The notes beneath the pieces are model-generated. The model had not been told where the DNA came from. It made no database searches and worked only from the letters and a program-made list of their open reading frames with translations. DNA of 64,000 bases from Escherichia coli (lineage in GTDB: Bacteria > Pseudomonadota > Gammaproteobacteria > Enterobacterales > Enterobacteriaceae), in assembly GCF_030013595.1 (NCBI RefSeq), contig NZ_CP122768.1. The stretch is one strand, 5' to 3'. Shown piece by piece: positions 1-45,800 of the stretch (position 1 is its first letter; each line of letters begins with the position of its first letter). The position numbers and the translations under genes are program-made.

Positions 1-222
1 ATGCGCGATCACAAAATCCTTATTGCTTCAGGTTCCCGGCGCAATGTGCCAATGCAGGAATATATGGATCGCGGCTATTTCACAGTGAAAGAAACAGCGG
101 TCAATACAAATCACGGAATACAGATATCGTTCACCACAAAAATCACCGGGCGTGGCCAACAGTGGCTGACCAGAAAGCTGCTCGATAACGGAATGCTGAA
201 AGTAACAGGGGAGGCTGCTTAA
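1..222 (+). CDS. Hypothetical phage nin-region protein, possibly truncated at the window edge
   Basis: ORF immediately upstream of ybcO-like/rusA in the same direction; no family recognised. Confidence 0.35.
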   Translation: MRDHKILIASGSRRNVPMQEYMDRGYFTVKETAVNTNHGIQISFTTKITGRGQQWLTRKLLDNGMLKVTGEAA

Positions 223-512
223 TGGCCAATCTACGCAAAGAAGCACGCGGCAGAGAATGTCAGGTACGTATTTACGGCGTATGCAATGGCAATCCTGAAA
301 CTACAGTTCTGGCACATTACCGGATGGCTGGAATTTGCGGAACGGGAATGAAGCCTGACGACCTGATCGGCGCATGGGCTTGTAGCGCGTGTCACGATGA
401 AATCGACCGACGCACCCATAATCTCGACAACAAAGACGCCAGACTTTACCACCTCGAAGGTGTGATCAGGACGCAGGCGATACTGCTGAAGGAGGGGAAG
501 ATTAAGCCATGA
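222..512 (+). CDS. ybcO: YbcO-like (DUF1364) putative nuclease of lambdoid nin region
   Basis: 96 aa with Cys/His-rich motif (CQVRIYGVCNGNPETTVLAH...CSACHDEIDRR) recalled from DLP12 YbcO; synteny upstream of rusA. Confidence 0.7.
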   Translation: MANLRKEARGRECQVRIYGVCNGNPETTVLAHYRMAGICGTGMKPDDLIGAWACSACHDEIDRRTHNLDNKDARLYHLEGVIRTQAILLKEGKIKP

Positions 513-871
513 ACGAATATCAGTTTGTGCTTCCTTACCCGCCGTCGGTGAATACCTACTGGCGAAGACGGGGAAGCCAATACTACATCAGCGATAAAGG
601 CCAGAAATACCGAAAAGACGTTCAGCAAATCATTCGCCAACTCAAGTTAGACATTTTCACCAAATCACGACTCCGTATCAAAGTCATCGCAGACGTTCCA
701 GACTCCCGCCGCCGCGACCTCGACAACATCCTGAAAGGTTTACTCGACTCCCTTATCCACGCCGGATTTGCGGAAGACGACGAGCAATTCGATGACATTC
801 GCGTAATTCGTGGTGTGAAAGTACCAGGCGGAAGGCTTGGAATAAAAATCACCGAACTGGAGAACGTATGA
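509..871 (+). CDS. rusA: Holliday junction resolvase RusA
   Basis: 120 aa; motifs PPSVNTYW and RRRDLDN typical of RusA; start overlaps the upstream stop. Confidence 0.85.
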   Translation: MNEYQFVLPYPPSVNTYWRRRGSQYYISDKGQKYRKDVQQIIRQLKLDIFTKSRLRIKVIADVPDSRRRDLDNILKGLLDSLIHAGFAEDDEQFDDIRVIRGVKVPGGRLGIKITELENV

Positions 872-1056
872 ACGCCACAATTCAAACGATACCAGAACTT
901 CTTATCCAGACACGAGGCAATCAGACCGAAGTGGCGAGGAGGCTTTCCTGTGCAAGAGGAACAGTGCTCAAGTACAACAGAGACAGCAAAGGCGAGCGTC
1001 ACGCAATAGTTAACGGCGTCCTGATGGTCAAACAGGGCAAGAGGGGAAGACGATGA
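868..1056 (+). CDS. ninH: NinH-like small DNA-binding protein
   Basis: 62 aa; motif GNQTEVARRL...RGTV...HAIVNGVLMV recalled from lambda NinH; located just upstream of Q. Confidence 0.75.
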   Translation: MNATIQTIPELLIQTRGNQTEVARRLSCARGTVLKYNRDSKGERHAIVNGVLMVKQGKRGRR

Positions 1057-1676
1057 GACTCGAAAGCGTAGCTAAATTTCATTCTCCAAAAAGCCCGATG
1101 ATGAGCGACTCACCACGGGCTACAGCTTCTGACTCTCTTTCCGGTACTGATGTGATGGCTGCTATGGGGATGGCGCAATCACAAGCCGGATTCGGTATGG
1201 CTGCATTCTGCGGTAAGCATGAACTCAGCCAGAACGACAAACAAAAGGCTATCAACTATCTGATGCAATTTGCACACAAGGTATCGGGGAAATACTGTGG
1301 TGTGGCAAAGCTTGAAGGAAATACTAAGGCAAAGGTACTGCAAGTGCTCGCAACATTCGCTTATGCGGATTATTGCCGTAGTGCCGCGACGCCGGGCGCA
1401 AGATGCAGAGATTGCCACGGTACAGGCCGTGCGGTTGATATAGCCAAAACAGAGCAGTGGGGGAGAGTTGTTGAGAAAGAGTGCGGAAGATGCAAAGGTG
1501 TCGGCTATTCAAGAATGCCAGCAAGCGCCGCATATCGCGCTGTAACGATGCTAATCCCAAACCTTACTCAACCCACCTGGTCACGCACTGTTAAGCCGCT
1601 GTATGACGCTCTGGTGGTGCAATGCCACAAAGAAGAGTCAATCGCAGACAACATTTTGAATGCGGTCACACGTTAG
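1053..1676 (+). CDS. Q: Late gene antiterminator Q (lambda-type)
   Basis: 207 aa; sequence recalled as essentially lambda Q (MRLESVAKFHSPKSPMMSDSP..., zinc-binding CRDCHGTG...CGRCKG); followed by pR'-like promoter. Confidence 0.9.
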   Translation: MRLESVAKFHSPKSPMMSDSPRATASDSLSGTDVMAAMGMAQSQAGFGMAAFCGKHELSQNDKQKAINYLMQFAHKVSGKYCGVAKLEGNTKAKVLQVLATFAYADYCRSAATPGARCRDCHGTGRAVDIAKTEQWGRVVEKECGRCKGVGYSRMPASAAYRAVTMLIPNLTQPTWSRTVKPLYDALVVQCHKEESIADNILNAVTR

Positions 1677-1718
1677 CAGCATGATTGCCACGGATGGCAA
1701 CATATTAACGGCATGATA

Positions 1719-1747
1719 TTGACTTTTTGAATAAAGTTGGGTAAATT
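1719..1747 (+). promoter_or_regulatory. Late promoter pR' (-35 TTGACT, 17-nt spacer, -10 TAAATT), with the Q-utilisation region expected to overlap
   Basis: Canonical sigma70 hexamers directly downstream of Q, in the position of lambda pR'. Confidence 0.7.
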
Positions 1748-1753
1748 TGACCC

Positions 1754-1947
1754 AACGATGGGTTAATTCGCTCGTTGTGGTAGTGAGATGAAAAGAGGCG
1801 GCGCTTACTACCGATTCCGCCTAGTTGGTCACTTCGACGTATCGTCTGGAACTCCAACCATAGCAGGCTGAGAGGTCTGCAAAATGCAATCCCGAAACAG
1901 TTCGCAGGTAATAGTTAGAGCCTGCACAACGGTTTCGGGATTTTTTA
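1754..1947 (+). ncRNA. Lambda-type 6S leader RNA (pR' to tR' transcript)
   Basis: About 194 nt from the predicted pR' start to the tR' T-run, matching the known lambda 6S RNA length; start site inferred. Confidence 0.5.
1891..1947 (+). terminator. tR' intrinsic terminator
   Basis: Inverted repeat cccgaaac...gtttcggg followed by a T-run (attttttatt). Confidence 0.65.
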
Positions 1948-1950
1948 TTT

Positions 1951-2025
1951 GGGTCAGTCGTATAAAGGTCATTACGGAAGGCTGTTAACCTTCTTATCGT
2001 GGTTCGAGTCCACGCTGTCCCGCCA
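1951..2025 (+). tRNA. tRNA-like gene, anticodon GUU (Asn), with one acceptor-stem mismatch; possibly degenerate
   Basis: Hand-folded cloverleaf: anticodon stem gaagg/ccttc with loop ctgttaa, T-arm cgtgg-ttcgagt-ccacg, 3' ctgtccc-g-CCA; T:T mismatch at acceptor pair 4:69. Confidence 0.5.
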
Positions 2026-2030
2026 AATAT

Positions 2031-2106
2031 GCTGGTTTAGCTCCAATGGTAGAGCGGTCGCCTTGTAAGCGAATGGGTAGCGGTTCAAGTCCGTTAACCA
2101 GCACCA
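2031..2106 (+). tRNA. tRNA-Thr (anticodon UGU)
   Basis: Hand-folded cloverleaf: acceptor gctggtt/aaccagc, D-stem gctc/gagc, anticodon loop cttgtaa, T-loop ttcaagt, discriminator A plus CCA. Confidence 0.7.
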
Positions 2107-2348
2107 TAACTGAGCCGTAGCCACTGGCTATCCTGAATTCATGAGTGATAGTTACGCTGCGGCCTTCTACACATGATCTTCGTGAAAGCGGGTGACAGGA
2201 GGTCGCGCTAACAACCTCCTGCCGTTTTGCCCGTGCATATCGGTCACGAACAAATCTGATTACTAAACACAGTAGCCTGGATTTGTTCTATCAGTAATCG
2301 ACCTTATTCCTAATTAAATAGAGCAAATCCCCTTATTGGGGGTAAGAC

Positions 2349-2672
2349 ATGAAGATGCCAGAAAAACATGACCTGTTAGCCGCCATTCTCGCGGCAAAGG
2401 AACAAGGCATCGGGGCAATCCTTGCGTTTGCAATGGCGTACCTTCGCGGCAGATATAATGGCGGTGCGTTTACAAAAACAGTAATCGACGCAACGATGTG
2501 CGCCATTATCGCCTGGTTCATTCGTGACCTTCTCGACTTCGCCGGACTAAGTAGCAATCTCGCTTATATAACGAGCGTGTTTATCGGCTACATCGGTACT
2601 GACTCGATTGGTTCGCTTATCAAACGCTTCGCTGCTAAAAAAGCCGGAGTAGAAGATGGTGGAAATCAATAA
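2349..2672 (+). CDS. S: Holin/antiholin S (class I holin)
   Basis: 107 aa; dual-start [10 protein letters not shown]...; sequence recalled as near-identical to lambda S. Confidence 0.9.
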
Positions 2673-3132
2673 TCAACGTAAGGCGTTCCTCGATATGCTG
2701 GCGTGGTCAGAGGGAACTGATAACGGACGGCAGAAAACCAGAAATCATGGTTATGACGTCATTGTAGGCGGAGAGCTATTCACTGATTACTCCGATCATC
2801 CTTGCAAACTTGTCACGCTAAACCCCAAACTCAAATCAACAGCAGCCGGACGTTACCAGCTTCTTTCCCGTTGGTGGGATGCCTATCGTAAGCAGCTTGG
2901 CTTGAAAGATTTCTCTCCGAAAAGCCAGGACGCAGTTGCACTGCAGCAGATTAAAGAGCGTGGCGCTTTACCTATGATTGATCGCGGTGATATCCGTCAG
3001 GCAATCGACCGTTGCAGCAATATCTGGGCTTCACTGCCGGGCGCTGGTTATGGTCAGTTCGAGCATAAGGCTGACAGCCTGATTGCAAAATTCAAAGAAG
3101 CAGGCGGAGCGGTCAGAGAGATTGAGGTATGA
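2656..3132 (+). CDS. R: Endolysin R (lambda-type lytic transglycosylase)
   Basis: 158 aa; [24 protein letters not shown]... recalled from lambda R; overlaps S stop. Confidence 0.9.
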
Positions 3133-3596
3133 GCAGAGTAACCGCGATTATCTCCGCTCTGGTTATTTGCATCATCGTCTGCCTGTCATGGGCTGTTAAT
3201 CATTACCGTGATAACGCCATCGCCTACAAAGAACAGCGAGATAAAAAAGTCAGTGAGCTGAAGCAGGCGACCGCCACCATTACTGACATGCAGCAGCGCC
3301 AGCGTTCTGCTGATGCGCTCGATGCTAAATACACGAAGGAGTTAGCTGATGCGAAAGCTGAAAATGATGCTCTTCGGCGCAAGCTTGATAATGGTGGTCG
3401 GGTGTTCGTCAAAGGAAAATGCCCTGTGCCATCCTCAGCCGAAACCTCCGGCGCCTCCGGCATGGGCAATGATGCCACCGTCGAACTCTCTCCAGTTGCT
3501 GGACGAAACGTTCTCGGTGTCCGGGACGGAATTATCCGCGACCAAACAGCACTGAGAACGCTTCAGGAATACATCAGGACGCAATGCCTTCGATGA
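3129..3596 (+). CDS. Rz: Spanin inner-membrane subunit Rz
   Basis: 155 aa; N-terminal TM segment and coiled coil; N-terminal half recalled as lambda Rz, C-terminal half divergent. Confidence 0.85.
3349..3555 (+). CDS. Rz1: Spanin outer-membrane lipoprotein Rz1, embedded in Rz in the +1 frame
   Basis: Embedded ORF with lipoprotein signal (LIMVVGC lipobox) and proline-rich region; true start may be an internal Met. Confidence 0.7.
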
Positions 3597-3769
3597 TAGC
3601 GATAATTTTACTCATCATCCTTCACATCTGGCTCTGTAGACAGGGTGGTGATCACTTCTGGAGTGAATCCAGATTAAACATCTCATTGCTGATGCTTGAA
3701 GTTGAGCATCTGGCGCGCGGTAAGGGGCTGCGTTGAGATAAGAGCCAGTCATTACAAATACCAGGATTT

Positions 3770-3796
3770 AGCCTCGCATTCGCGGGGCTTTTTTAT
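3770..3796 (+). terminator. Putative intrinsic terminator downstream of lysis genes
   Basis: Hairpin gcctcgc-att-gcggggc followed by ttttttat. Confidence 0.4.
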
Positions 3797-3941
3797 ATCT
3801 GCAACAAACGCGCTTCACACGCGCGACTTATGAACACAGAACCTTTCAGGATGACCCTTGAGGATGCCGGTTTGGTGATCGGTGCCTTTCTGTGGGCCGG
3901 AATCCTGTGTGACAAGGTTCATCACTAAAAGGTGAGCACTG

Positions 3942-4484
3942 ATGAATTATCCAACTATCGTTAACGGCATCGATTTCCGAGAACTGATTTTTGTGGCAAA
4001 CAACGATCCGGTTACAGATTCTTTTATGGTGGCAAAAGCATTTGGAAAGCTGCCGAAGAACGTGGTTCGTGACATTGAGCGAACCATAGAAGCTTGCCCT
4101 CCTGAGTTTGATACAAAGCTCAACTTTGAGCTTTGCTATAAAAACAATGAGTTACAGAATGGTAAGCCGCAAAAATTCTACCGTCTACGCAAGGATGGGT
4201 TGATGCTTTTGGTTATGTCCTACACCAAAAAAGAAGCAATGCGTATCAAAATTGCTTACATCAACGCATTTAACTGGATGTACGCCATGCTTCAGGTTGG
4301 TCATCGTCAATTTGAAGAAGAGAGAAATGCCGTAATGCTGGAGTACATGAAAGAGAAGGATGTTGCCAGCATGTCAGGTCGCCTGCTAAATCGCTGGGGC
4401 AAAATTAAGAAGCCACAGTTGCTGGCTAGAATTGAACGCCTTGAACAGCACGGGCAAACCGTAATCCCCGGACTCATCAATTAA
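3942..4484 (+). CDS. rha: Rha-family phage regulatory protein
   Basis: 180 aa; N-terminal region typical of Rha/ORF6N-type phage regulators; position between lysis and terminase genes as in P22-like phages. Confidence 0.65.
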   Translation: MNYPTIVNGIDFRELIFVANNDPVTDSFMVAKAFGKLPKNVVRDIERTIEACPPEFDTKLNFELCYKNNELQNGKPQKFYRLRKDGLMLLVMSYTKKEAMRIKIAYINAFNWMYAMLQVGHRQFEEERNAVMLEYMKEKDVASMSGRLLNRWGKIKKPQLLARIERLEQHGQTVIPGLIN

Positions 4485-4691
4485 CGGCAGTACCGCGAAA
4501 CAACCCAAGCCAGTAAGTGGGGAAATAACTGAAAGATGAACCTCCAGCCTTATGGCAAAAAAGATTCTTTGTGGTGGCGGACTGATGGAAAGACATCGGA
4601 TAGAATAAAACAGTGGCTAGGGTAGCTCCCGAAAAGCGGAATCGTCACCGCCAGCCACTGAATCTATGACGAACAACTAGACGAGGTTGAT

Positions 4692-4934
4692 ATGAGTGAA
4701 ATTGATAAAATAATAAATGGTACATGTAACTTTCAATCAATGCCGCCAGGTAGTTATGTAAAACAATGTAGTGAAATAGTTAATGGTCAGCTTGTAATGT
4801 CAAATGCAGGACGTGGAGTTTCTACGGATGAAAAAAAATCAATAAATGAAGCCCTATTAAGCATCAATGTTTTTGACTTGTTTCGCCCATCTTGGGTTAT
4901 TTTGCAAAATAGTAGTCAATTCCCACATTATTGA
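4692..4934 (+). CDS. Hypothetical small protein (low-GC moron)
   Basis: 80-aa ORF with markedly AT-rich codon usage compared with flanking phage genes; followed by a T-rich stretch. Confidence 0.45.
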   Translation: MSEIDKIINGTCNFQSMPPGSYVKQCSEIVNGQLVMSNAGRGVSTDEKKSINEALLSINVFDLFRPSWVILQNSSQFPHY

Positions 4935-5081
4935 TAAATTAATTAATAAATTGGTCGCTCAGGCGGCCTTTTTTATTGCCATCACAAAAGCCATTCCCTA
5001 CAGAGTGGCTTTGATAATGGCTTATACCCTACACGGGATAACTTAACTGATATCCCTTTTAACGGATAAACGGAGCCAACA

Positions 5082-5324
5082 ATGGCAGAGATTATTCCCA
5101 TGACTGAAGAACAGAAATTCCAGTTAGAGATTTACAAGCTGGTCATGAACCAGAACGCAGCCGCAGAAGAAGCATTTCAATTCATTGGCACTGACGAACT
5201 GAAGCTTGAGCTATTCAAAATTCACTTCCAGTCAGGTGGCGCTAATTCAGATATCACGACCCGAACTATCGAAGCGGTGCGTAAATCGAAGGAAGCGTTA
5301 GACCTGTTCACTACCGGAGCATAA
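5082..5324 (+). CDS. Hypothetical phage protein upstream of small terminase
   Basis: 80-aa acidic ORF with phage-like codon usage; conserved position in P22-like genomes. Confidence 0.5.
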   Translation: MAEIIPMTEEQKFQLEIYKLVMNQNAAAEEAFQFIGTDELKLELFKIHFQSGGANSDITTRTIEAVRKSKEALDLFTTGA

Positions 5325-5403
5325 ACATGGCAACTCAAGGTTTCGACAACCCATCCAAATTCCGCGATGAATGGGATAAGCAAGCAGAAGGGAAATAATC
5401 AAT

Positions 5404-5892
5404 ATGGCAGCACCAAAGGGCAACCGATTTTGGGAGGCCCGCAGTAGTCATGGGCGAAATCCTAAATTCGAATCGCCTGAGGCGCTGTGGGCTGCTTGTT
5501 GTGAATACTTCGAGTGGGTAGAAGCTAACCCGCTATGGGAGATGAAGGCGTTCTCGTATCAGGGTGAAGTGATACAAGAGCCTATCGCCAAGATGCGAGC
5601 GATGACCATTACCGGACTCACTCTGTTCATTGATGTGACGCTTGAAACATGGCGCACATATCGCCTGCGAGAAGATTTATCTGAAGTCGTTACGCGAGCA
5701 GAGCAGGTCATCTACGACCAGAAATTCTCTGGCGCAGCCGCTGACCTTCTCAACGCTAACATCATCGCCCGTGATTTGGGCCTCAAAGAGCAGTCGCAAG
5801 TTGAAGACGTGACACCTGATAAGGGAGATCGCGATAAGCGACGCTCTCGTATCAAGGAGCTATTCAACCGTGGAACTGGACGCGATTCTTGA
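5404..5892 (+). CDS. Terminase small subunit (P22 gp3-like)
   Basis: 162 aa; [29 protein letters not shown]... recalled as P22 gene 3 product. Confidence 0.85.
5671..5692 (+). other. Putative pac site (headful packaging initiation) inside the small terminase gene
   Basis: Sequence gaagatttatctgaagtcgtta matches my recollection of the P22 pac site, which lies within gene 3. Confidence 0.5.
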
Positions 5893-7369
5893 TAACCTGA
5901 GCGACGAAGAGCAAATCGAGTTGCTCGAGCTACTCGAAGAAGAAGAGAACTACCGGAACACACACCTGCTATATGAATTTACGCCATACAGCAAACAGCG
6001 TGAGTTCATCGACGCCGGGCATGACTATCCAGAGCGCTGTTTTATGGCTGGTAACCAGCTTGGTAAGTCATTTACTGGTGCTGCTGAAGTCGCGTTTCAC
6101 CTTACCGGGCGTTATCCGGGCACAAAAGGCTATCCGGCTGATGGTAAATATGGTGGGGAGTGGAAAGGTAAGCGTTTCTATGAGCCTGTTGTCTTCTGGA
6201 TTGGCGGCGAGACAAACGAGACTGTAACCAAAACGACTCAACGCATCCTGTGCGGTCGTATCGAAGAGAATGATGAGCCTGGCTACGGCTCCATACCGAA
6301 AGAGGACATCATTAGCTGGAAGAAGTCTCCTTTCTTTCCGAACCTTGTTGATCACCTTCTGGTTAAGCATCACACGGCTGATGGCGTTGAAGATGGCATT
6401 TCAATCTGCTACTTCAAGCCATACTCGCAAGGTCGTGCTCGCTGGCAGGGTGACACAATCCACGGAGTGTGGTTTGACGAAGAACCACCATACAGCATTT
6501 ATGGCGAAGGGCTTACCCGTACCAACAAATACGGGCAATTCTCAATCCTGACGTTTACCCCGCTGATGGGGATGTCTGACGTTGTTACCAAGTTCCTGAA
6601 GAATCCCAGCAAGTCGCAGAAAGTGGTCAACATGACCATCTATGACGCTGAGCACTATACCGACGAGCAGAAAGAGCAAATCATCGCATCCTATCCAGAG
6701 CATGAGAGAGAGGCTCGAGCTCGCGGTATTCCTACGATGGGTAGTGGTCGAATCTTCCAGATACCGGAAGAGACGATTAAGTGTCAGCCGTTCGAGTGTC
6801 CTGATCACTTCTACGTAATTGGCGGGATGGATTTCGGATGGGATCACCCTCAGGCGCAGGTTCAGCTTTGGTGGGATAAGGACGCAGACACAATCTACGT
6901 TTCGCGCGTGTGGAAGGCGAAAGAAAAGACAGCTGTTCAGGCGTGGGGAGCCGTTAAACCATGGGCGCATAAAGTGCCAACCGCATGGCCCCATGACGGA
7001 AACCAGCACGAGAAGGGCGGCGGTGAGCAGCTTAAAGGGCAGTACGCGGACGCTGGTTTTATGATGTTGCAGGAGCATGCGACATGGCCTGATGGCGGTA
7101 ACGCTGTGGAGCCTGGAATCACTGAATTGCGCGACATGATGCTTGATGGTCGCTTCAAAGTATTCAACACCTGTGAGCCATTCTTTGAGGAGTTCCGCCT
7201 CTATCACCGTGATGAAAACGGGAAGATCGTCAAGCTTAACGACGACGTGCTATCCGCCGTTCGCTATGCATACATGATGCGCCGCTTCGCAAAAATGATG
7301 CGCGACATCAAAAAACCAAAAGAGAAAAAGATACCAGCCCCAATCAGGCCCATCGCACGGAGAACTTAA
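5870..7369 (+). CDS. Terminase large subunit (P22 gp2-like)
   Basis: 499 aa (same length as P22 gp2); ATPase/nuclease-type motifs; overlaps terS end. Confidence 0.85.
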
Positions 7370-9535
7370 ATGGCCGACGAAAACAGACTCAATTCCATTC
7401 TGTGTAAGTTTGACGCAGACTGGATGGCGAGCGATGAAGCCAGAACCGAGGCGACAAATGACCTGTATTTTAGCCGAGTGTCGCAATGGGATGACTGGCT
7501 ATCAAACTACACCACCCTGCAATATCGCGGACAATTCGATGTTGTCCGCCCGGTTGTCAGGAAGTTGGTCGCAGAGATGCGCCGGAACCCTATCGACGTT
7601 CTCTTCCGACCAAAAGACGGTGCTAATCCTGATGCTGCCGATGTGCTGATGGGGATGTATCGTACTGATATGCGCCATAACACGGCAAAAATTGCCGTTA
7701 ATGTTGGCGTTCGTGAGCAGATAGAGTCAGGCGTTGGTGCATGGCGTCTGGTCACGCAGTACGAAGACAACGACCCAACAAGCAACAATCAGGTAATCCG
7801 ACGCCTGCCAATCCATGAAGCCTGCTCACACGTCATATGGGACGCCAACAGCAAGCAGATGGATAAGAGCGACGCTAAGCACTGCACGGTGATTAACGCC
7901 TTGTCACGCAATGGCTGGAAAGAGTTCGCAGAGGATTACGGTATTGATCCTGACACCTTGCCATCTTTCCAGAATCCGAACGATACATGGCTGTTTCCGT
8001 GGGTATCGAATGATGTCGTCTACGTCGCTGAGTATTACGAGGTCGAAGAGAAGAAGGAGAAGGTCTTCATCTACCGCGACCCGCTGACAGGTGAGCCGGT
8101 CAGCTATTACCAGCAGGATATCAAAGACGTCATCGACGACCTGGCTAATCGTGGATTCATTAAGGTAGCAGAGCGCAAGGTGAAGCGTCGGCGTGTGTAT
8201 AAGTCGATCATCACCTGCACGCAGATACTGAAAGACCGAGAAAAGATAGCCGGAGAGCATATCCCAATCGTTCCAGTGTATGGAGAATGGTCATTCGCTG
8301 GTGACAAGGAGTGCTACGAAGGAGTGGTAAGGCTGACGAAAGACGGTCAACGCCTTCGTAACATGATCATGTCATTCAACGCCGATATTGTTGCTCGTTC
8401 ACCGAAGAAGAAACCGACCTTCTTCCCTGAGCAAATCGAAGGCTACGAATACATGTACGGTGGAAATGATGACTATCCGTACTATCTGCAGAACAGGACC
8501 GATGAAAACGGTAACGACCTGCCGATTGGTCCAATCTCCTACATGGAAAACCCTGAAGTGCCGCAAGCCAACGCTTATATGCTTGAGGCTGCCACCAACG
8601 CAGTGAAAGAGGTGGCTAGTCTTGGTGTGGATGCGCAGGCAGCAAACTCTCAGGTCGCTTTCGATACCGTCAATCAACTGAACATGCGGGCAGACCTTGA
8701 GACATACGTGTTTCAGGATAACCTGGCTACCGCAATGCGACGTGATGGCGAGATTTATGCCTCAATGGTCAACGATATTTATGACGTTCCTCGTCATGTA
8801 ACGCTGACACTTGAAGATGGAAGCGAGAAAGACGTTCAACTCTATGCGCAAGTTGTCGATTACCAGTCCGGCAATGTGGTCACACTCAACGACATTCGTG
8901 GTCGCTATGAGTGCTATACAGACGTTGGACCATCCTTCCAGAGTATGAAGGAACAGAACCGCGCAGAGATTCAGGAGTTACTCACCAAGGTTCCGCAAGG
9001 TACTCCAGAGTTCCAGATGCTGATGCTGCAATACTTCACGCTCCTTGACGGTAAAGGCGTCGAGATGATGCGAGAGTACGCGAACAAGCAACTGGTGATG
9101 ATGGGGCTGAAGAAACCAGAAACACCTGAAGAGATGGAGATGGTACAACAGGCACAACAACAGCCGCAGCAGCCATCAGCAGAGCAAATTCAGGCGCAGG
9201 GTATCCTTCTGCAAGGTCAGGCTGAATTGCTCAAGGCAGAGAACCAACAGGCACAGATTCAGGTTGAAGCCGCCAAGGTTGAAGCCCAAAACCAACTCAA
9301 CGCCGCGAAGATTGCAGAAATCTTCAACAATATGGACCTCGACAAGCAGGCAGAACTGCGTGAGTACCTCAAGCTAGTAGGTCAATTCCAGCAACAGCGC
9401 AGCAAAGATGCTCGTGCTAACGCTGAGCTGCTTCTTAAAGATGCAGACCAGAATCATTCACAACGCATGGATTTCGCGAATCTTATGCGTCAAGTTCAAA
9501 TCCCCTCCGGCGGAGTAGCCGAGACACCTCAATAA
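7370..9535 (+). CDS. Portal protein (P22 gp1-like)
   Basis: 721 aa; Gln-rich C-terminal coiled-coil barrel region; position after terL. Confidence 0.85.
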
Positions 9536-9548
9536 GAGAGAGTTAATC

Positions 9549-10460
9549 ATGGACCAAACCACCGACATTCAGGCTTCTGAAGAATTAACCCTGCCCGGCA
9601 ATCATGCAGCGGCATCTGCTGATGGCTTAGTTGTCGATAATGCCAACGACAACGCAGGTCAGGAAGAAGGCTTTGAGATTGTCCTGAAAGACGATGAGAA
9701 ACCAAAACAAGACCCGGCAACTAATGCTGAATTTGCCCGTCGCCGCATCGAACGCAAACGCCAGCGTGAGCTTGAGCAGCAGATGGAAGCGGTTAAGCGT
9801 GGAGAGTTGCCGGAGCACCTGCGGGTGAACCCTGAGTTACCAAAACAACCAGACCCTAACGATTATCTTTCCGAAGATGCACTGGCTAAGTACGACTATG
9901 ACCAGAGCCGCGCACTGGCTGCCTTCCAGCAGGCAAACAGTGAATGGCAGATCAAGGCTATGGACGCACGAAGCCAGGCTGTCGCCGAGCAGGGCCGCAA
10001 AACTCAGGAGTTCACCCAGCAATCAGCGCAATACGTCGAGGCCGCCCGTAAGCACTACGATGCAGCGGAAAAGCTTAATATCCCTGACTATCAGGAGAAA
10101 GAGGATGCATTCATGCAACTGGTGCCGCCAGCAGTCGGTGCCGACATCATGCGCCTCTTCCCGGAGAAATCCGCCGCTCTCATGTATCACCTTGGTGCTA
10201 ATCCTGAGAAAACACGCCAGTTGCTGGCGATGGACGGGCAATCCGCGCTGATTGAACTCACTCGACTGTCAGAACGTTTAACTCTCAAGCCTCGAGCAAA
10301 GCCTGTTTCAGAAGCCCCGTTACCTGATGAACCCATTCAGGGACACGCTGTTGCTGCAAATATCTCTGCGATTGAAAAGCAGATGGAAGCGGCAGCAAAC
10401 AAAGGGGATGTAGAGACGTACCGCAAGCTCAAGGCGCAACTGAATAAAGGAATTCGATAA
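9549..10460 (+). CDS. Scaffolding protein (P22 gp8-like)
   Basis: 303 aa, highly charged helical protein between portal and coat. Confidence 0.8.
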
Positions 10461-11755
10461 TGGCATTAAATGAAGGTCAACTGGTCACGTATGCTCTGGA
10501 TGAAATCATCGAAACCGTCCAGAACCTGACGCCAATGGCGTCCAAAGTGACAAAATACACCCCTCCGGCAGAATCCATGCAGCGTTCAAGCAACACCGTG
10601 TGGATGCCTGTTGAGCAGGAAGCGCCAACCCAGACTGGCTGGGATTTAACTGGCAACGCAACCGGGATTCTGGAACTCTCCGTGAAATGCAACATGGGCG
10701 ATCCGGATAACGATTTCTTCGAGCTTCGTGCAGATGACCTGCGTGATGAGCGTTCTTACCGTCGCCGCATCCAGGCATCCGCCAAAAAACTGGCGAATAA
10801 CATTGAGTCAGCGATTGCCAAACAGGCAACTGAAATGGGCTCGCTTGTTGTTCACGATACCCGCGCAATTGGTCCATCTACTGGCCTTTCTGGCTGGGAT
10901 TTTGTGTCTGATGCAGAGCGCCTGATGTTCTCCCGTGAGCTAAACCGCGATATGGGCATCAGTTACTTCCTGAACCCTGACGATTACCGCAAAGCAGGCC
11001 GCAACCTGGTAGATGGTGACATCTTCGGGCGCGTTACTGAAGACGCGTATCACAACGGTACTATTCAGCGTCAGATTGCTGGCTTTGATGAAATTCTTCG
11101 CTCACCGAAACTTCCCGCAGTTACCAAGTCAACCGCTACTGGTGTAACTGTTTCTGGTGCGCAGAAGTTTAAGCCGCAGGCATACACCCTTGATACCGAT
11201 GGTAACAAAGAGAACGTCGATAACCGTGTTGCAACGGTGACCGTATCCTCCACCACCGGATTTAAGCGCGGCGACAAAATCAGCTTCACTGGTGTGAAAT
11301 TCCTGTCTCAGATGGCGAAGAACGTGCTGACTGATGATGCGACTTTCTCAATCACCCGTGTGATCGATGGTACTCACATCGAAATCACGCCGAAGCCGAT
11401 TGCGCTGGATGACGCGTCACTGACAAAAGAAGAGAAGGCTTACGCTAACGTAAACACCTCTCTTGCTGATACCACTCCGGTAAACGTTCTGAACGTGGCA
11501 ACAACCACCGCTAACGTGTTCTGGGCTGATGACTCAATCCGTCTGCTGTCTCAGCCGATCCCGGTAACCCATGAACTGTTTGCTGGCATGAAAACGTCTT
11601 CCTTCAGCATTCCTGGTATTGGTGTTAACGGCATCTTCGCAACGCAGGGGGATATCAACACTCTGTCTGGCAAGTGCCGTATTGCTGTGTGGTATTCAGC
11701 ATGTGCTGTACGACCAGAGGCAATTGGTGTTGGTCTGCCTAACCAGACCGCGTGA
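10460..11755 (+). CDS. Major capsid (coat) protein (P22 gp5-like)
   Basis: 431 aa; [22 protein letters not shown]... closely matches recalled P22 coat protein. Confidence 0.9.
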
Positions 11756-11763
11756 TAACCAGA

Positions 11764-11787
11764 GGGAGCTTCGGCTCCCTTTTTTAT
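11764..11787 (+). terminator. Intrinsic terminator after coat gene
   Basis: Hairpin gggagc-ttcg-gctccc followed by tttttta. Confidence 0.7.
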
Positions 11788-11799
11788 CTGGAGACAAGC

Positions 11800-12054
11800 A
11801 TGACACACATGATCTTTCGTCATGGAGACATGAAGAAGTGGAAAGGCGTTGGATACGACTTTGAAATCGTGAAAGCCGAAGAGCTTCAGGAATATCTGGA
11901 TGCTGGCTGGTTTGCACATCCCGATGACCTTCTGAAGGATGTTGCAGAGTCAGAGCCAGAGCTAGAACCAGAGTCAGAGCCAGAAGAAAAACAGCGTAAA
12001 AAGCCTGGTCGAAAACCTAAGGCGGTAGCAGATGAACCTGACAACGAAGGGTGA
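11800..12054 (+). CDS. Hypothetical acidic small protein between coat and gp4
   Basis: ATG at 11800 preceded by GGAGA; 84 aa with [13 protein letters not shown] acidic repeat; the ORF-track start at 11752 would lie inside the terminator. Confidence 0.5.
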
Positions 12055-12532
12055 TTTAGTTCTTGCGGCATTACGTAAGCTCGGTGTGGCATCAAATGCC
12101 ACGTTAACCGATGTCGAACCGCAGTCTATGGAAGATGGCGTCAACGACCTTGAAATGATGATGGCTGAATGGCTTGGCGGTGATGCGTCACCTGGGATCA
12201 ACGTTGGCTACATTTTCGCTGATGCAGATGTCGCTCCAGATCCGGGCGATGAGCACGGCTTATCAAATAACGCTATAAATGCCGTCATTTTCAACCTTGC
12301 CTGCCGCATTGCTCCAGATTATGCGCTGGAAGCGCCAGCAAAACTTATAACCACTGCCAGATACGGGAAAGAGCGACTCGTCAAACCGTCTGCAATGGAC
12401 AGAGCAAAAGCCGCTAAATGTAAGTCCGGTTATCCAAACCGTATGCCTGTTGGTAGCGGTAACCAGTTGGCGAAGTGGAATGGTTGGAATTACTTCCACC
12501 GAAAGGAACCTTGCGATAACGGGAGCGAATAA
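12032..12532 (+). CDS. Head completion / tail accessory protein (P22 gp4-like)
   Basis: 166 aa, same length and position as P22 gp4. Confidence 0.75.
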
Positions 12533-13951
12533 ATGCCGATTCAGCAACTTCCGCTTATGAAAGGTGTCGGCAAAGACTTTCGAAACGCCGACTATATCGA
12601 CTATCTGCCAGTGAATATGCTGGCTACACCCAAAGAAATCCTGAACAGCAGCGGATATCTTCGCTCATTCCCTGGCATTGCCAAACGCTCTGATGTGAAC
12701 GGTGTATCTCGCGGCGTCGAGTACAACATGGCGCAGAATGCTGTTTATCGTGTGTGTGGTGGCAAGCTGTACAAAGGAGAAAGTGAAGTCGGTGACGTCG
12801 CCGGAAGTGGTCGCGTATCAATGGCGCATGGTCGTACATCTCAGGCGATAGGTGTTAATGGTCAACTGGTCGAGTATCGCTATGATGGCACGATTAAAAC
12901 CGTCTCAAACTGGCCTACAGATAGTGGATTCACTCAGTATGAGCTAGGTTCGGTTCGTGACATTACGCGCTTACGTGGGCGTTATGCGTGGTCAAAAGAC
13001 GGCACTGATTCATGGTTTATCACTGATCTTGAAGACGAATCGCATCCTGACCGCTACAGCGCACAATATCGTGCCGAGTCTCAGCCGGACGGCATCATCG
13101 GCATCGGCACATGGAGAGACTTCATCGTCTGCTTTGGTTCATCGACGATTGAATATTTCTCCCTGACTGGTGCAACCACCGTTGGTGCTGCTTTGTATGT
13201 CGCACAGCCATCACTGATGGTGCAGAAAGGCATTGCCGGGACTTACTGCAAAACGCCGTTTGCTGACTCGTATGCGTTCATCAGCAATCCGGCAACAGGT
13301 GCGCCGTCTGTATACATCATCGGCTCCGGTCAGGTATCACCAATCGCCAGCGCGAGCATTGAGAAAATACTACGCTCCTACACTGCTGATGAACTGGCTG
13401 AAGGCGTGATGGAATCGCTGCGGTTTGATGCGCATGAGTTGCTGATTATCCATCTTCCGCGCCATGTTCTCGTATACGACGCATCTTCAAGCGCCAATGG
13501 TCCGCAATGGTGTGTATTGAAAACAGGCCTGTATGACGATGTGTACCGCGCTATCGACTTCATTTACGAAGGCAATCAGATAACGTGCGGCGATAAGCTG
13601 GAATCGGTGATCGGGAAATTGCAGTTCGATATCAGCAGCCAGTACGACAAGCAACAGGAACACCTGCTGTTTACTCCGTTGTTCAAAGCGGATAACGCCA
13701 GATGCTTTGATCTGGAGGTGGAATCATCGACTGGTGTTGCGCAGTATGCTGACCGCCTGTTCCTCTCTGCAACCACTGACGGCATCAATTACGGTCGTGA
13801 GCAGATGATTGAGCAGAATGAACCGTTCGTTTACGACAAACGCGTTTTGTGGAAGCGAGTTGGGCGCATCAGGAAAAATGTCGGCTTCAAATTGCGCGTT
13901 ATCACTAAGTCACCTGTCACTCTGTCAGGCTGCCAGATAAGGATTGAGTAA
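12533..13951 (+). CDS. Tail accessory protein (P22 gp10-like)
   Basis: 472 aa, same length and position as P22 gp10. Confidence 0.75.
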
Positions 13952-14799
13952 TGGCTGATTCGAATCTCAATGTGCCGGTAATCATTCAGGCTACACGGCT
14001 CGACACATCAGTCCTTCCACGCAATATCTTCTCGCAGTCGTATCTGCTTTACGTTATCGCACAGGGTACTGATGTTGGTAACGTGGCGAACAAAGCCAAC
14101 GAGGCCGGACAGGGTGCTTATGACGCACAAGTCAGGAACGATGAGCAGGATGTGATTCTCGCTGACCATGAGCAGCGAATTTCTGCTGCGGAAGCAACGC
14201 TTGTTAATCATGAGGAGCGAATCAGCCAGGCAGAATCAACTCTTCAGGAACATGAAACGCGAATCGCTCAGAATGAAAGCGATATTGCGTCGCTTGATAC
14301 CAGAGTTCAGTCGCTGGAGTCGCAGGTTTCAGACCATGAATCGCGCATCGATTCTCTGGAGTATGCCACTACTCGCAAAAAGTCAGAGGTTGTTTACTCT
14401 GGCGTATCTGTAACCATTCCGACAGCGCCGACCAACCTTGTTAGCCTGCTGAAAACGCTCACGCCGTCATCAGGCTCGTTGGCACCATTCTTCGACACCG
14501 TTAACAACAAGATGATTGTGTTCAACGAGAACAAAACCTTGTTCTTCAAGCTGTCGATCGTCGGGACGTGGCCCAGCGGAACAGCCAACAGGTCAATGCA
14601 GCTAACCTTTTCCGGCTCTGTTCCTGACACACTGGTAAGCAGTCGCAACTCGGCTACAACAACCGATAACATCCTGTTAGCTACGTTCTTCAGCGTGGAT
14701 AAAGACGGCTTTCTTGCCACAAATGGCAGCACGTTAACCATCCAGTCAAATGGTGCGGCGTTTACTGCCACAACTATCAAAATCATTGCGGAGCAGTGA
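13951..14799 (+). CDS. Tail needle protein (P22 gp26-like) with C-terminal knob extension
   Basis: 282 aa; N-terminal heptad-repeat coiled coil ([41 protein letters not shown]) followed by an extra C-terminal domain. Confidence 0.75.
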
Positions 14800-17325: not shown

Positions 17326-19430
17326 TGGCTAAAGCATGGAAAGATGTTATCGCTTCTCCACAGTATCAGGCGTTAGCACCAGAACAAAAAGCGCAGGCTC
17401 AGGAGCAATACTTCAATGAAGTCGTGGCCCCGCAAGCCGGAGAAAGTGTAGAGCAGGCTAAGCAGGCTTTTTATGCTGCCTATCCACTACCATCAACGAA
17501 TGAAATAGACCGATACCAATCAGCAACTCAAAATATTCAACATACATCATCTGATAATTCTCTTGCGTCAGGGTATGCAAAGTTAGCTACTCAGCAAAGA
17601 GAGGGGCTTGAGCGTTCAGCAGAACAGGGAGCCAGTCTTGGGGCTGCGATGCGCGATGCTATAACAGGCGAAAGCCGAATGACTCCAGAGATGGAGAGAC
17701 TGCAAAATGTCGACCTTGCCCCAGAGTTAACCTCACTCAGCATGGATGCTCTAAAAGCTCGATGGTCTCAACTTTTCGGCTCTGACGCATCTCAGGAAAA
17801 GATTCTTCAGAGCATGGGAGCGAAATTAAGGCAGGATGAGAAGGGGAACACTATCGTTTCCCTGCCATCCGGTGATTATGCTCTGAACAAGCCGGGTTTA
17901 TCGCCGCAAGACGTGGCATCGTTTCTGGCTAATGCGCTGGCGTTTACACCAGCGGGCAGGGCTGGAACGGTGCTTGGTGCCATAGGAAAATCAGCAGCTA
18001 CAGATTTAGCACTACAGGGAGCCACCAGCCTTGCTGGTGGAGAAGATATTGATCCGTTACAAACGGTAATTTCTGCTGGCATTGGTGGTATTGGTAAGGG
18101 GCTGGAAAATACAGCGAGTGCGGTTTCGAGGGCTGTTCGTGGTGATATGTCGCCTGAAGCAAAGGCTGCTGTCGACTTTGCATCGGAAAGAAATCTGCCG
18201 TTAATGACCAGTGACATGCTGAAAGATAAAACCTTTATGCAGAGTCAGGCTCAGACATTAGGCGAAAGAGTTCCTTTTTTTGGAACCGGTAAGAATCGGC
18301 TGAATCAACAACAAGCACGAGAAAATTTAGTCAGAACATTTAGCGATGGTCTGGGTGGTATTTCTGATAAACAGCTTTATGAATCTGCGACTAAAGGGCA
18401 ACAAAAATTCATTGAGGCAGCAGGAAAGCGATATAACCGCATAATTGACGCTATGGGGGATACCCCTGTCGATCTCTCAAACACGGTAAAAGCTATCGAC
18501 AATCAGATTGCCGTGTTAAGCCGCCCGGGCAAATCTCAGGATAGAGCCGCGGTAAAAGTCTTGCAGCAATTTAAAGACGATATCACCAGCGGGCCAAATG
18601 ACCTGCGTCTGGCGAGGGAAAACAGAACCGATCTTCGAAAGCGATTTATGGCGTCATCTGACACTGTTGATAAAGATACGCTCCAGAAAGCCAGCGATAT
18701 TATCTACAAGGCATATACGGCGGATATGAAAAAAGCCGTAGCCAAAAATCTTGGAGCAGACGAAGCCATTAATATGGCAAGGGTTGATCGCTCATGGTCT
18801 AAATTCAATGACATGATGGGAAGAACGCGCGTTCAAAAGGCAATAGCCAGCGGCAAGGCCACGCCTGAGGATGTAACAAAACTCGTTTTTAGCCAAAGCC
18901 CATCAGAACGTTCTCAGCTTTACAGGCTTCTGGATGACAATGGTAGGCAAAACGCACGAGCAGCCATAGTTCAGAATGCTGTAGATAAGGCGACTGATCC
19001 GTCTGGAAATATCAGTGTTGAGAAGTTTATTAATGCGTTACACCGGAACAGGAAGCAATCAGCAACTTTCTTTAAAGGCGTACATGGAAAGGAACTGGAC
19101 GGCGTTATTAAATACCTCAACGATACAAGACACGCGGCAAAAGCGAACGTTCAAAACTTAAATGGTCAGCAGCTTTATGGATTGTTAGTTGGTGGTGGCA
19201 TCATAAACGCAGCAGTATTAGCGGGGATGCTAAAAACGGCTGCGTTTGTTGTTCCTGCTGCTGGTGCCGTAGGCGGAGCAGCGAAGGCATACGAAAGCCC
19301 TGTTATACGAAATGCCTTGTTACGTCTGGCAAATACGCCAAAAGGTAGCACAGCATATGACAGAGCGATCAGTACGGTCACACAATCGCTCACCAGAGTC
19401 GCACAGGCATCACAAAAAGAAGCTCAATAA
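17325..19430 (+). CDS. Ejection protein, P22 gp16-like (longer than I recall for P22)
   Basis: 701 aa; last gene of the rightward virion operon. Confidence 0.7.
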   Translation: MAKAWKDVIASPQYQALAPEQKAQAQEQYFNEVVAPQAGESVEQAKQAFYAAYPLPSTNEIDRYQSATQNIQHTSSDNSLASGYAKLATQQREGLERSAEQGASLGAAMRDAITGESRMTPEMERLQNVDLAPELTSLSMDALKARWSQLFGSDASQEKILQSMGAKLRQDEKGNTIVSLPSGDYALNKPGLSPQDVASFLANALAFTPAGRAGTVLGAIGKSAATDLALQGATSLAGGEDIDPLQTVISAGIGGIGKGLENTASAVSRAVRGDMSPEAKAAVDFASERNLPLMTSDMLKDKTFMQSQAQTLGERVPFFGTGKNRLNQQQARENLVRTFSDGLGGISDKQLYESATKGQQKFIEAAGKRYNRIIDAMGDTPVDLSNTVKAIDNQIAVLSRPGKSQDRAAVKVLQQFKDDITSGPNDLRLARENRTDLRKRFMASSDTVDKDTLQKASDIIYKAYTADMKKAVAKNLGADEAINMARVDRSWSKFNDMMGRTRVQKAIASGKATPEDVTKLVFSQSPSERSQLYRLLDDNGRQNARAAIVQNAVDKATDPSGNISVEKFINALHRNRKQSATFFKGVHGKELDGVIKYLNDTRHAAKANVQNLNGQQLYGLLVGGGIINAAVLAGMLKTAAFVVPAAGAVGGAAKAYESPVIRNALLRLANTPKGSTAYDRAISTVTQSLTRVAQASQKEAQ

Positions 19431-19637: not shown

Positions 19638-20011
19638 ACCAACCTCCTTAGTTTTGCTCAGGATACCAGATGATACTTTATTGGTGGAGTGGTGTGTGAA
19701 AACGTGTCAACGACAAACCATCCACAACTTGGACGAATGATTTAGCAAAAAGTGCTATTTTTGGTGTTTAGTGTCATAGAAAAGTGAATAGCTCACTTTT
19801 CAACATTGCATGAAACTTGCAGGAAATGTGACATTACCTTATAGGTAATTTCGGCGAAAATGCAGTAAATGTGAAACGTAATGGTTTAAACATGTCGCTA
19901 AAGTGGTTGTAAGTTAGCCTCCGAAGGATTGCTGATAGCTTTGTTATAGTATTAAATGACATTTGACATAGTTGGATACTTAGCTGTGGCTATCAAGATG
20001 GAGGTGTGTTC

Positions 20012-20455
20012 ATGCTTACTTGTTTTGATGTCGCCGACTACTTCCTGTCGCGGTGTGACGAGGATAGCGGTGACACAATCTCTAATTTAAAATTACAAAA
20101 GCTTGTTTACTATGCTCAGGGGTTTTCATTGGCGTTGCTTGGTGAGCCTCTTTTTCAGAATAAGATGGAAGCTTGGATGCATGGCCCTGTTGTCCCTGAG
20201 CTTTATCGCCGTTATAAACAATATGGTAATGGAGCTATCCCTTCTCCAGAGTCTTTTGATGCTGAAAAATTCAGCGAAGAACAGTTAGAGCTATTAGAAG
20301 AAGTCTGGGATGTTTTTGGGCAATTTTCTGCCTGGAAACTGAGGAACATGACACACGAAGAGTCACCATGGAGATCAAACTATATTGAGGGTGTTGGTGG
20401 TTCTGAAATTAGCTCTAAGGAGATGGCAGAGTACTTTGCAACTCGGATTAACTAA
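20012..20455 (+). CDS. DUF4065 / Panacea-domain protein (putative antitoxin, PanA/SocA-like)
   Basis: Motif LKLQKLVYYAQGFSLALLGEPLF...EAWMHGPVVPELYRRYKQYG typical of DUF4065 phage-associated proteins; GGAGG 7 nt upstream of ATG 20012 (the ORF track uses GTG 20006). Confidence 0.65.
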   Translation: MLTCFDVADYFLSRCDEDSGDTISNLKLQKLVYYAQGFSLALLGEPLFQNKMEAWMHGPVVPELYRRYKQYGNGAIPSPESFDAEKFSEEQLELLEEVWDVFGQFSAWKLRNMTHEESPWRSNYIEGVGGSEISSKEMAEYFATRIN

Positions 20456-20459
20456 CGAG

Positions 20460-44047: not shown

Positions 44048-44067
44048 TAGTTCGTCGTTGTGCACTG

Positions 44068-44104
44068 ATGCCTGATGCGACGCTGAAGCGTCTTATCAGG
44101 CATT
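44068..44104. repeat. REP (repetitive extragenic palindromic) element
   Basis: gcctgatgcgacgctgaagcgtcttatcaggc imperfect palindrome typical of E. coli REP. Confidence 0.8.
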
Positions 44105-44116
44105 CGATGCCAGCAT

Positions 44117-44668: not shown

Positions 44669-44833
44669 TTATCTGTCTCTATTTCTAATTTTCCTACAGT
44701 TTACCCGACTCGTAGCGCAATCGATCGTTTTAAACGTATTTTTCCTCACTCACCGCGCGTGAATGCTGATTTATCGTCATCTTCATGGCAAACTAGCCGC
44801 CGAAATTATTGCGATCATGCCCTGGAGGAATAC

Positions 44834-45766: not shown

Positions 45767-45800
45767 GTAAACACGCAAACACAACAATAACGGAGCCGTG

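Follow-up and report, generated by a model that had tools for sequence, protein, structure and literature searches.

How genes resembling those of two different phages came to stand side by side, and what lies between them, is the question raised by a 64,000-nucleotide stretch of Escherichia coli DNA (contig NZ_CP122768.1, assembly GCF_030013595.1), referred to throughout as the window. A first-pass annotation of positions 1-5400 had described a clean modular exchange in which a lambda-type late-control and lysis module is fused to a P22-type packaging and virion module, with the region 3600-5400 (rha and two small open reading frames, ORFs) as the recombination joint and an AT-rich moron within it. 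The observation behind that description is real and far beyond chance. In order to locate the boundaries, the window was compared with 11 reference phages (lambda, P22, HK620, Kapi1, Sf6, E212, CUS-3, BIS08P22, APC_JM3.2, HK97 and POCJ13) by blastn and by identity per 100-bp bin, and gene families were assigned with Pfam and PHROGs. The identity plots against lambda, P22 and their relatives located the breakpoints, and uniform similarity to one phage was not seen; the best phage record covers 78% of window 1-5400 and none reaches 80%. No single record matches all of 1-5400, and the prophage is a new combination of known segments.

The best matches change from segment to segment: E212, Kapi1 and HK620 for 1-1948; lambda, at 95-97%, for 1043-1948 and 2108-3376; Kapi1 and Sf6 for two tRNA genes; HK620 and Kapi1 for the 3' half of Rz and for Rz1; POCJ13 and CUS-3 for rha; P22 and APC_JM3.2 for 5398-6800; and APC_JM3.2 for 5300-12400. 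At least eight breakpoints were found, those outside 3600-5400 lying at the Q start codon, after the terminator tR', in Rz at ~3220 and ~3376, and in the large terminase gene at ~6800. Mosaicism is therefore present as the first-pass annotation had stated, but the case is not a clean one between two phages, the arrangement being the usual architecture of P22-like phages. Several of the putative exchange points adjoin short sequences conserved in nearly all relatives, and no one boundary is the junction of lambda with P22.

Virion genes, a tailspike gene, an integrase gene, tRNA-Arg(CCU) and an E. coli flank are all present, and therefore the window holds the right part of a P22-like prophage. 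Positions 1 to ~26,700 very probably belong to a temperate P22-like prophage (Lederbergvirus) at argW, the gene for tRNA-Arg(CCU), in E. coli, of which they form the right-hand part, and there is little doubt that its early-right operon ends, and its late operon begins, within positions 1-5400. The gene order is uninterrupted and the ORFs are intact from nin through Q, lysis, terminase, portal, scaffold and coat to the tail accessory and ejection genes, tailspike, int and attR. The integrase region is ~96% identical to Sf6, HK620 and Kapi1 by blastn, and beyond 26.7 kb the sequence matches the E. coli yfdC-mlaA-fadL-fadI region with 99.8% identity. Two points weigh against this picture as a whole: the left half of the prophage falls outside the window, and Q-dependent read-through, like the promoter and terminators, is predicted from sequence identity and consensus scans. 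The features at the right end are the following.

23377-25272, tailspike, 631-amino-acid (aa) ORF with the P22 head-binding domain (Pfam Head_binding, E = 5.5e-67)
25349-26539, minus strand, integrase gene
26665-26739, tRNA-Arg(CCU) at the prophage end (ARAGORN)

E. coli P22-like phages usually carry late-control and lysis genes of the lambda type, and lambdoid phages are mosaics. The architecture is ordinary for P22-like phages of E. coli and Shigella (HK620, Sf6, Kapi1, APC_JM3.2 and E212), and the prophage is one more case of known mosaicism, of teaching value, that changes nothing. The only part with some novelty, and that modest, is a swappable cassette led by the int-alpA RNA motif within the AT-rich moron.

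The region between the lysis and packaging genes

The proposal that 3600-5400 is one recombination joint does not hold. The region is the standard accessory-gene region of P22-like phages, the P22 counterpart of which holds rha, orf25, orf80 and orf59c, and it consists of three anchors kept at 95-100% in nearly all relatives (3597-3800, 4475-4602 and 4981-5322) that flank two variable slots.

3584-3800, + strand, anchor 1: 50-aa ORF (3584-3736, homologue of Sf6 gene 65) and terminator-like hairpin (3770-3789)
3942-4484, + strand, rha-family regulator gene in slot A (3800-4475); Pfam Phage_pRha and ORF11CD3, TIGR02681
4475-4602, + strand, anchor 2: non-coding boundary sequence
4603-4971, + strand, slot B: AT-rich moron
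4981-5324, + strand, anchor 3: intergenic hairpin and DUF2560 gene (5082-5324; Pfam DUF2560, E = 1e-43)

Anchor 1 is 95-100% identical in HK620, Kapi1, Sf6, E212, CUS-3 and APC_JM3.2; its 50-aa ORF matches phrog_11822 with E = 8.6e-38, and its hairpin at 3770-3789 was returned by the terminator scan. Anchor 2 is 97-100% identical in P22, HK620, Kapi1, Sf6, E212, CUS-3, BIS08P22, APC_JM3.2, HK97 and POCJ13. The DUF2560 gene of anchor 3 is the counterpart of HK620 hkbM and P22 orf80, and its protein is 98.8-100% identical to those of P22, HK620, Kapi1 and Sf6. The rha allele in slot A is 96-100% identical to that of the Stx-type Shigella phage POCJ13 and, from 4000, 99% identical to that of CUS-3; the protein is 55% identical to the P22 Rha encoded at the same position. 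In relatives, slot A holds KilA-N, Tad2-like or other genes, or nothing.

The place occupied here by rha is taken in some relatives (loci L013-L015, 5227-5706) by a Tad2-like gene (PF11195), and the record of phage Huey annotates anti-CRISPR genes under its match to the region from Rz to DUF2560 (window 3560-5322). Because of these two observations, the region from Rz to the terminase genes may be an anti-defence hot spot.

The hairpin 5' of the DUF2560 gene (4981-5010, aligned to Kapi1 18165-18200 and P22 40310-40345) reads AAAGCCA...TGGCTTT here and GAGGCCA...TGGCCTC in HK620 and P22, and the compensatory changes suggest a conserved RNA or terminator structure. Between the DUF2560 and small terminase genes, a 23-aa ORF (5328-5399) that is 99-100% conserved in E212 and APC_JM3.2 occupies the place of P22 orf59c and HK620 hkbN. 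A second ORF at 4867-5046 (59 aa) was rejected as spurious; it overlaps a terminator and the conserved non-coding anchor and has no family match in Pfam or PHROGs.

The AT-rich moron and the int-alpA motif

The presence of an AT-rich moron in this region, the term being used as in the epsilon34 genome paper (PMC2629481), which cites Juhala et al. 2000, was borne out. The G+C content is 33% over 4651-4950 compared with 45-53% in the flanking bins. At the empty site Kapi1, HK620 and P22 read ...GACATCGG joined directly to TTATTGC..., and the window carries 369 bp inserted at that point (4603-4971), placing the moron between genes that adjoin in those three phages. The insert and its left edge contain the following elements.

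4601-4606, + strand, -10-like hexamer TAGAAT
4610-4672, + strand, int-alpA RNA motif (Rfam RF02996)
4683-4694, + strand, ribosome-binding site (RBS) and ATG, in a conserved linker
4692-4934, + strand, 80-aa orphan ORF
4953-4974, + strand, predicted terminator, a GC-rich hairpin with a T-run (terminator scan)

The int-alpA match scored 42.0 bits against a gathering score of 35.8, covering the full length of the model (1-71) with E = 8e-7 in a 2-kb search; the predicted fold is an outer stem around two hairpins with the conserved CUAG and CGAAAAGCGG elements. The moron is likely a self-contained expression cassette comprised of a -10 element, an int-alpA-type leader, an RBS, an 80-aa protein and an intrinsic terminator. 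A promoter-like site at 4687-4714, returned by the consensus scan, was ruled out as the moron promoter; it overlaps the start codon.

The 80-aa ORF has no match in Pfam, PHROGs, PADLOC or NCBIfam, and only six clusters of homologues, all unnamed, were found among 5.8 billion proteins. The AlphaFold2 model, built from a seven-sequence alignment, has three helices with a mean pLDDT of 64 and a pTM of 0.45, too weak for a fold search. A 95%-identical protein is encoded in eight independent assemblies, always directly upstream of DUF2560, with upstream neighbours that vary and with terminases of the P22, Sf6 and CUS-3 types all occurring downstream. Comparison with BIS08P22 and a metagenomic locus revealed conservation of the terminator and of the leader up to and including the ATG, while the coding sequences between them are unrelated ORFs, one of which (locus L021) matches Pfam DUF551; the coding sequence thus appears to have been exchanged exactly between start codon and terminator.

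The unit was also found at a second site. In the interval between Q and S of other prophages (L020 and L021, 5917-6300), a 73%-identical ORF is accompanied by a diverged leader and the same terminator, and this copy is inserted directly after the late-leader terminator, the slot that holds tRNA genes in the window. The diverged leader keeps both inner hairpins by compensatory changes (GGG/CCC to GAT/ATC and GCGG/CCGC to GAGT/ACTC).

An exact-seed scan of viral contigs with a 25-nucleotide (nt) seed, which biases the set that it returns, yielded at least 120 leader loci. Among the matches listed, the sequence GAYGAGG-N-ATG follows the motif in 92 of 131 leader copies, the motif lying 20 nt upstream of the start codon; the ORFs behind the leader belong to at least 22 unrelated families, most without a Pfam match; and, where marker genes are close enough to judge, the usual place of the cassette is downstream of Rz, with occasional copies between Q and S. 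Hexamers resembling a -10 box occur at three adjacent offsets upstream of the motif (48 hits over 71 contexts, compared with 0-6 at each other offset), and they are conserved in position even though the sequence preceding the motif is unrelated from one context to the next. RNAalifold analysis of 26 diverse leaders recovered the three-stem fold of Rfam, with four outer-stem pairs each changed on both sides in 9-11 sequences; the inner hairpins in this main set say little because the search pattern fixed them. The leader was present in only 23 of 50,697 cultured-phage records, with Salmonella, Enterobacter, Klebsiella, Edwardsiella, Pantoea, Vibrio, Shewanella and Pseudomonas as hosts.

Rfam classes RF02996 as a small-RNA gene, whereas here and at ~90 related loci the motif lies 20 nt 5' of the starts of variable small ORFs and after a -10 box. 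This placement between a -10 box and the start codons of small ORFs suggests that int-alpA is an mRNA 5' leader. In the paper collection searched, only one paper mentions the motif, as a list entry, and the main text of the discovery paper contains no discussion of it.

That the moron is an autonomous cassette, with a transcript that would start at the int-alpA structure and with the motif acting as mRNA leader, is the most likely reading, at about even odds. A less likely, competing explanation is that the AT-rich segment is an ordinary accessory gene of the late operon and that the int-alpA match is a trans-acting small RNA or due to chance. In its favor, the Rfam score exceeds the gathering score by only 6 bits, the family is listed as a small-RNA gene, and the moron lies within a Q-antiterminated operon and would therefore be transcribed anyway; moreover, the -35 region, with 3 of 6 positions matching by eye, is poor, leaving promoter activity a prediction. 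Against it stand the position of the motif 20 nt ahead of a conserved RBS and ATG in 92 of 131 copies, the -10-like hexamers at a fixed distance in unrelated flanks, the double changes at each of the four outer-stem pairs, the compensatory changes that preserve both inner hairpins in the copy between Q and S, and the occurrence of the entire unit with its terminator at two different sites.

The autonomous-cassette reading can be extended, tentatively and with slightly less than even confidence, to the view that int-alpA serves as 5' leader in a self-transcribed, portable 'plug-in' cassette carried by temperate phages of gamma-proteobacteria, and that the 80-aa cargo is a candidate host-interaction factor. 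The moron may be expressed from the prophage too. A role of the 80-aa product in host interaction is a guess based on the kinds of genes associated with the neighboring slot, namely the Tad2-like gene of relatives and the Huey anti-CRISPR annotations. If true, the cargo would be a candidate for anti-defence, exclusion or lysogenic conversion. The moron would tie the uncharacterised int-alpA motif to a role as leader of a swappable accessory-gene cassette, offering a concrete entry point for tests of the RNA and of a group of orphan phage proteins.

Origins of the late-control, lysis and packaging segments

The segments on either side of the accessory region contain the following features.

1-1056, + strand, nin-region end: C-terminus of a roi/ant-type gene (1-222), ybcO (222-512), rusA (509-871), ninH (868-1056)
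1053-1676, + strand, late antiterminator gene Q of lambda specificity type (Pfam Antiterm)
1719-1747, + strand, predicted late promoter pR', TTGACT-17-TAAATT (promoter scan)
within 1719-1947, + strand, qut/6S leader and terminator tR' (tR' at 1891-1947; lambda alignment)
1951-2025, + strand, tRNA-Asn (GTT) (ARAGORN, Rfam tRNA)
2031-2106, + strand, tRNA-Thr (TGT) (ARAGORN, Rfam tRNA)
2349-2672, + strand, holin gene S, lambda allele (Pfam Phage_holin_3_1)
2656-3132, + strand, endolysin gene R, lambda allele
3129-3596, + strand, spanin gene Rz, HK620/Kapi1 allele (Pfam Phage_lysis)
3349-3555, + strand, Rz1, embedded in Rz in the +1 frame (Pfam Rz1)
5404-5892, + strand, small terminase gene, P22 gene 3 type (Pfam GP3_package)
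5671-5692, pac site, 22 bp, exact P22 match
5870-7369, + strand, large terminase gene (Pfam Terminase_6N/6C)
7370-9535, + strand, P22-type portal gene (Pfam P22_portal, E = 2.6e-162)
13951-14799, Sf6-type needle knob (PF16532)

The nin end, with Pfam matches to ANT, YbcO, RusA and Phage_NinH, is 92-100% identical to HK620, Kapi1, CUS-3, HK97 and E212 and is of the HK620/HK97 type; the binned identity map revealed no DNA match to lambda or P22 over 1-1040. The lambda match begins at the RBS and start codon of Q, window 1043-1948 being 97.4% identical to lambda 43875-44781 by blastn, a stretch that spans the Q start, pR', qut and tR'. The first-pass annotation was correct in that Q, S, R and the 5' part of Rz are near-identical to lambda, with 99.0, 99.1 and 97.5% protein identity for Q, S and R and a match that stops at ~3376. 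Q cannot tell lambda from P22 because gene 23 of P22 is itself lambda-type (97.6% protein identity to Q of the window, 94.8% for nucleotides), and the epsilon34 genome paper makes the same point about a further P22-like phage (PMC2629481). The leader (1676-1948) is 97-98% identical to lambda 44509-44781, and the lambda match stops directly past the tR' T-run. Thus, Q of lambda specificity is present with its cognate pR'-qut-tR' leader, and antitermination is predicted.

The lambda match is interrupted at 1949-2107 by a tRNA pair that the first-pass annotation had missed, and resumes at ~2108. The tRNA-Asn and tRNA-Thr genes (Rfam scores of 55 and 61 bits) lie directly 3' of the tR' T-run, 159 bp replacing 163 bp of lambda (44782-44944), and the pair is 99% identical to Kapi1 and 93-98% identical to Sf6, at the same position in both. 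The Sf6 record annotates the pair as 'similar to phage 21'.

Window 2108-3376 is 95.4% identical to lambda 44945-46213 by blastn, comprising S, R and the first part of Rz; P22 gp19 has no match to R. As also stated by the first-pass annotation, the C-terminal half of Rz and Rz1 diverge from lambda: the Rz protein is 97% identical to that of Kapi1, 91% to HK620 and 61% to lambda, and the Rz1 protein is 98.5% identical to Kapi1 and 43% to lambda. The identity of Rz to lambda is ~95% to ~3220, ~80% over 3221-3330, high again over 3330-3373, and lost from 3374, 25 nt into Rz1. The lambda-type lysis cassette is nonetheless complete, with a class I holin, the R transglycosylase and Rz with embedded Rz1, the C-terminal half of Rz and Rz1 being a non-lambda allele.

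From the small terminase gene onward the genes are of the P22 type, as the first-pass annotation had it, but the similarity to P22 is uneven. The small terminase protein is 100% identical to P22 gp3, with differences at 6 of 489 nt, and the gp3-type small terminase together with the exact P22 pac predicts packaging of the headful type. Identity to P22 is 92-100% over 5398-6800 (94-100% to ~6750) and then falls to ~72% (64-80% in 50-bp bins) inside the large terminase gene, while APC_JM3.2 stays 94-100% identical across this breakpoint through 12400. The whole blastn match to P22 (6 kb, 78%) had masked the 1.4-kb stretch at ~97%, which binning by position resolved. Protein identity to P22 is 92.6% for gp2 and 77.6% for the portal. 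ORFs of scaffold and coat size follow the portal (9549-10460 and 10460-11755), and DNA identity to P22 genes 1, 8 and 5 is 68-92% in 200-bp bins (~78% overall), compared with 94-100% to APC_JM3.2; RefSeq annotates 'P22 phage major capsid protein family' in relatives. The gene 10/26 region is 93-94% identical to Sf6, HK620 and Kapi1. The predicted gene content, with a P22-type portal, scaffold and coat order, short-tail genes and a gp3-type small terminase, is that of a Lederbergvirus.

The gp3 identity and exact pac upstream of a sharp drop at 6750-6850 indicate that packaging genes were recently exchanged between lineages of Salmonella and of E. coli. In this E. coli prophage, a small terminase protein and pac identical to those of P22, with a sharp breakpoint in the large terminase gene, place this recent exchange at the terminase genes bordering the procapsid cluster, for which the epsilon34 genome paper reports little or no exchange between Salmonella's P22-like phages and those of E. 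coli and Shigella (PMC2629481).

Farther downstream, in the 'ant moron' region, which is flanked by the gene 16 homologue and the antirepressor gene, an ORF at 20006-20455 encodes a SocA/Panacea antitoxin domain (E = 1.9e-24) and overlaps a 164-aa ORF without a family (20385-20879); the two may be a prophage-borne toxin-antitoxin pair.

The sequence is a patchwork because lambdoid phages swap segments by recombination, and established lambda and P22 biology suggests that this one arose by recombination among lambdoid phages, several times beside conserved sequences. By analogy with lambda and P22, Q would load onto RNA polymerase at qut in pR', and the modified polymerase would then pass tR' and transcribe, as one late operon, the two tRNA genes, S-R-Rz/Rz1, the accessory genes, the terminase genes of P22 pac specificity and the virion genes.

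A recent single hybrid of a lambda-like and a P22-like phage, formed by one crossover in 3600-5400, would leave Q, S and R proteins 97-99% identical to those of lambda, a gp3 100% identical to that of P22, and a loss of similarity to both phages between 3376 and 4254, all of which were found. Such an origin is nevertheless most improbable. The nearest relatives of the part called lambda-type are other P22-like phages, Kapi1 being 97.7% identical over 1-3796 compared with 95-97% for lambda over only 2.2 kb, a result which sets aside the fusion of two modules proposed in the first-pass annotation. Further, neither lambda nor P22 is the source of the nin genes, tRNA genes, 3' half of Rz, Rz1, 50-aa ORF and rha, a lambda-type Q is present in P22 itself, the breakpoints number eight or more and not one, and the architecture is common to HK620, Sf6, CUS-3, Kapi1, E212, APC_JM3.2 and 89 complete genomes. 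A chimeric assembly, or a pair of prophage remnants that are adjacent or degraded, could produce the abrupt switches of similarity partner and the lack of a phage record covering 80% or more of 1-5400, but is hardly credible given that the junctions recur in eight different assemblies, in phages APC_JM3.2 and E212 and in 89 complete genomes, and that the canonical gene order is unbroken from nin to attR with intact ORFs.

Comparison with known phages

At least 80% of window 1-12000 was found in 89 complete E. coli genomes, E. coli W included, at ~97% identity. Lambda-type Q, S and R genes upstream of P22-like virion genes are also present in HK620, Sf6, CUS-3, Kapi1, E212, APC_JM3.2, HZ41, Dewey and IME10. 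Mosaicism of lambdoid phages has reportedly been documented since the genome papers on HK97/HK022, HK620 and Sf6.

Among the closest known phages are Kapi1 (MT813197) and HK620 (NC_002730), both Lederbergvirus, which have the same order of roi, ybcO, rusA, ninH, Q, S, R, Rz/Rz1, 50-aa ORF and DUF2560, the Rz/Rz1 allele of the window and an integrase ~96% identical. The 97.7% identity of Kapi1 over 1-3796 is unbroken and includes the tRNA-Asn/Thr pair, and the 17-nt attB of the Kapi1 record lies within the aligned segment ending at window 26662, beside tRNA-Arg(CCU). Both phages differ in having terminase, portal, scaffold and coat genes of the Sf6/CUS-3 types, without a DNA match to the window and with portal proteins 33-34% identical, in having other genes in slot A (KilA-N in HK620), and in an empty slot B, with 19 bp in place of the 369-bp moron.

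A P22-type gp3/gp2 terminase joined to Q, S and R of the lambda type also occurs in APC_JM3.2 (MG197996) and E212 (MZ043897). APC_JM3.2 is 94-100% identical over 5300-12400 and has the Rz allele of the window, but lacks the tRNA genes and the moron, and has a lambda-like ninG-ninH-ninI in place of ybcO-rusA and another rha allele. E212, which is 99-100% identical over 1-1400, differs by an Sf6-type allele of Rz and by divergence in gene 3 (5500-5700) and after ~6800.

Lambda (NC_001416) shares with the window, at 95-99% identity, Q, pR', qut, tR', S, R and the first ~30 codons of Rz, and the same Q-dependent late control is expected. Lambda differs in having ninI upstream of Q, no tRNA genes after tR', other alleles of the Rz C-terminal part and Rz1, and, downstream, bor, a cos-type Nu1/A terminase and siphovirus virion genes.

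P22 (NC_002371) has the same late-operon order of 23, lysis genes, rha and orf80 followed by 3, 2, 1, 8 and 5, with 97.6% identity for gp23, 98.8% for orf80, 100% for gp3 with an identical pac, and 92.6% for gp2. It differs in having another endolysin (gp19), a holin gene with 83% identity, another Rz allele, a Rha with 55% identity, orf25 and orf59c, and a nucleotide identity of ~72-78% from ~6800 on. The epsilon34 genome paper describes P22-like phages as typically having a Q and qut of the lambda type, lysis cassettes that can be interchanged and nin regions that are mosaic (PMC2629481).

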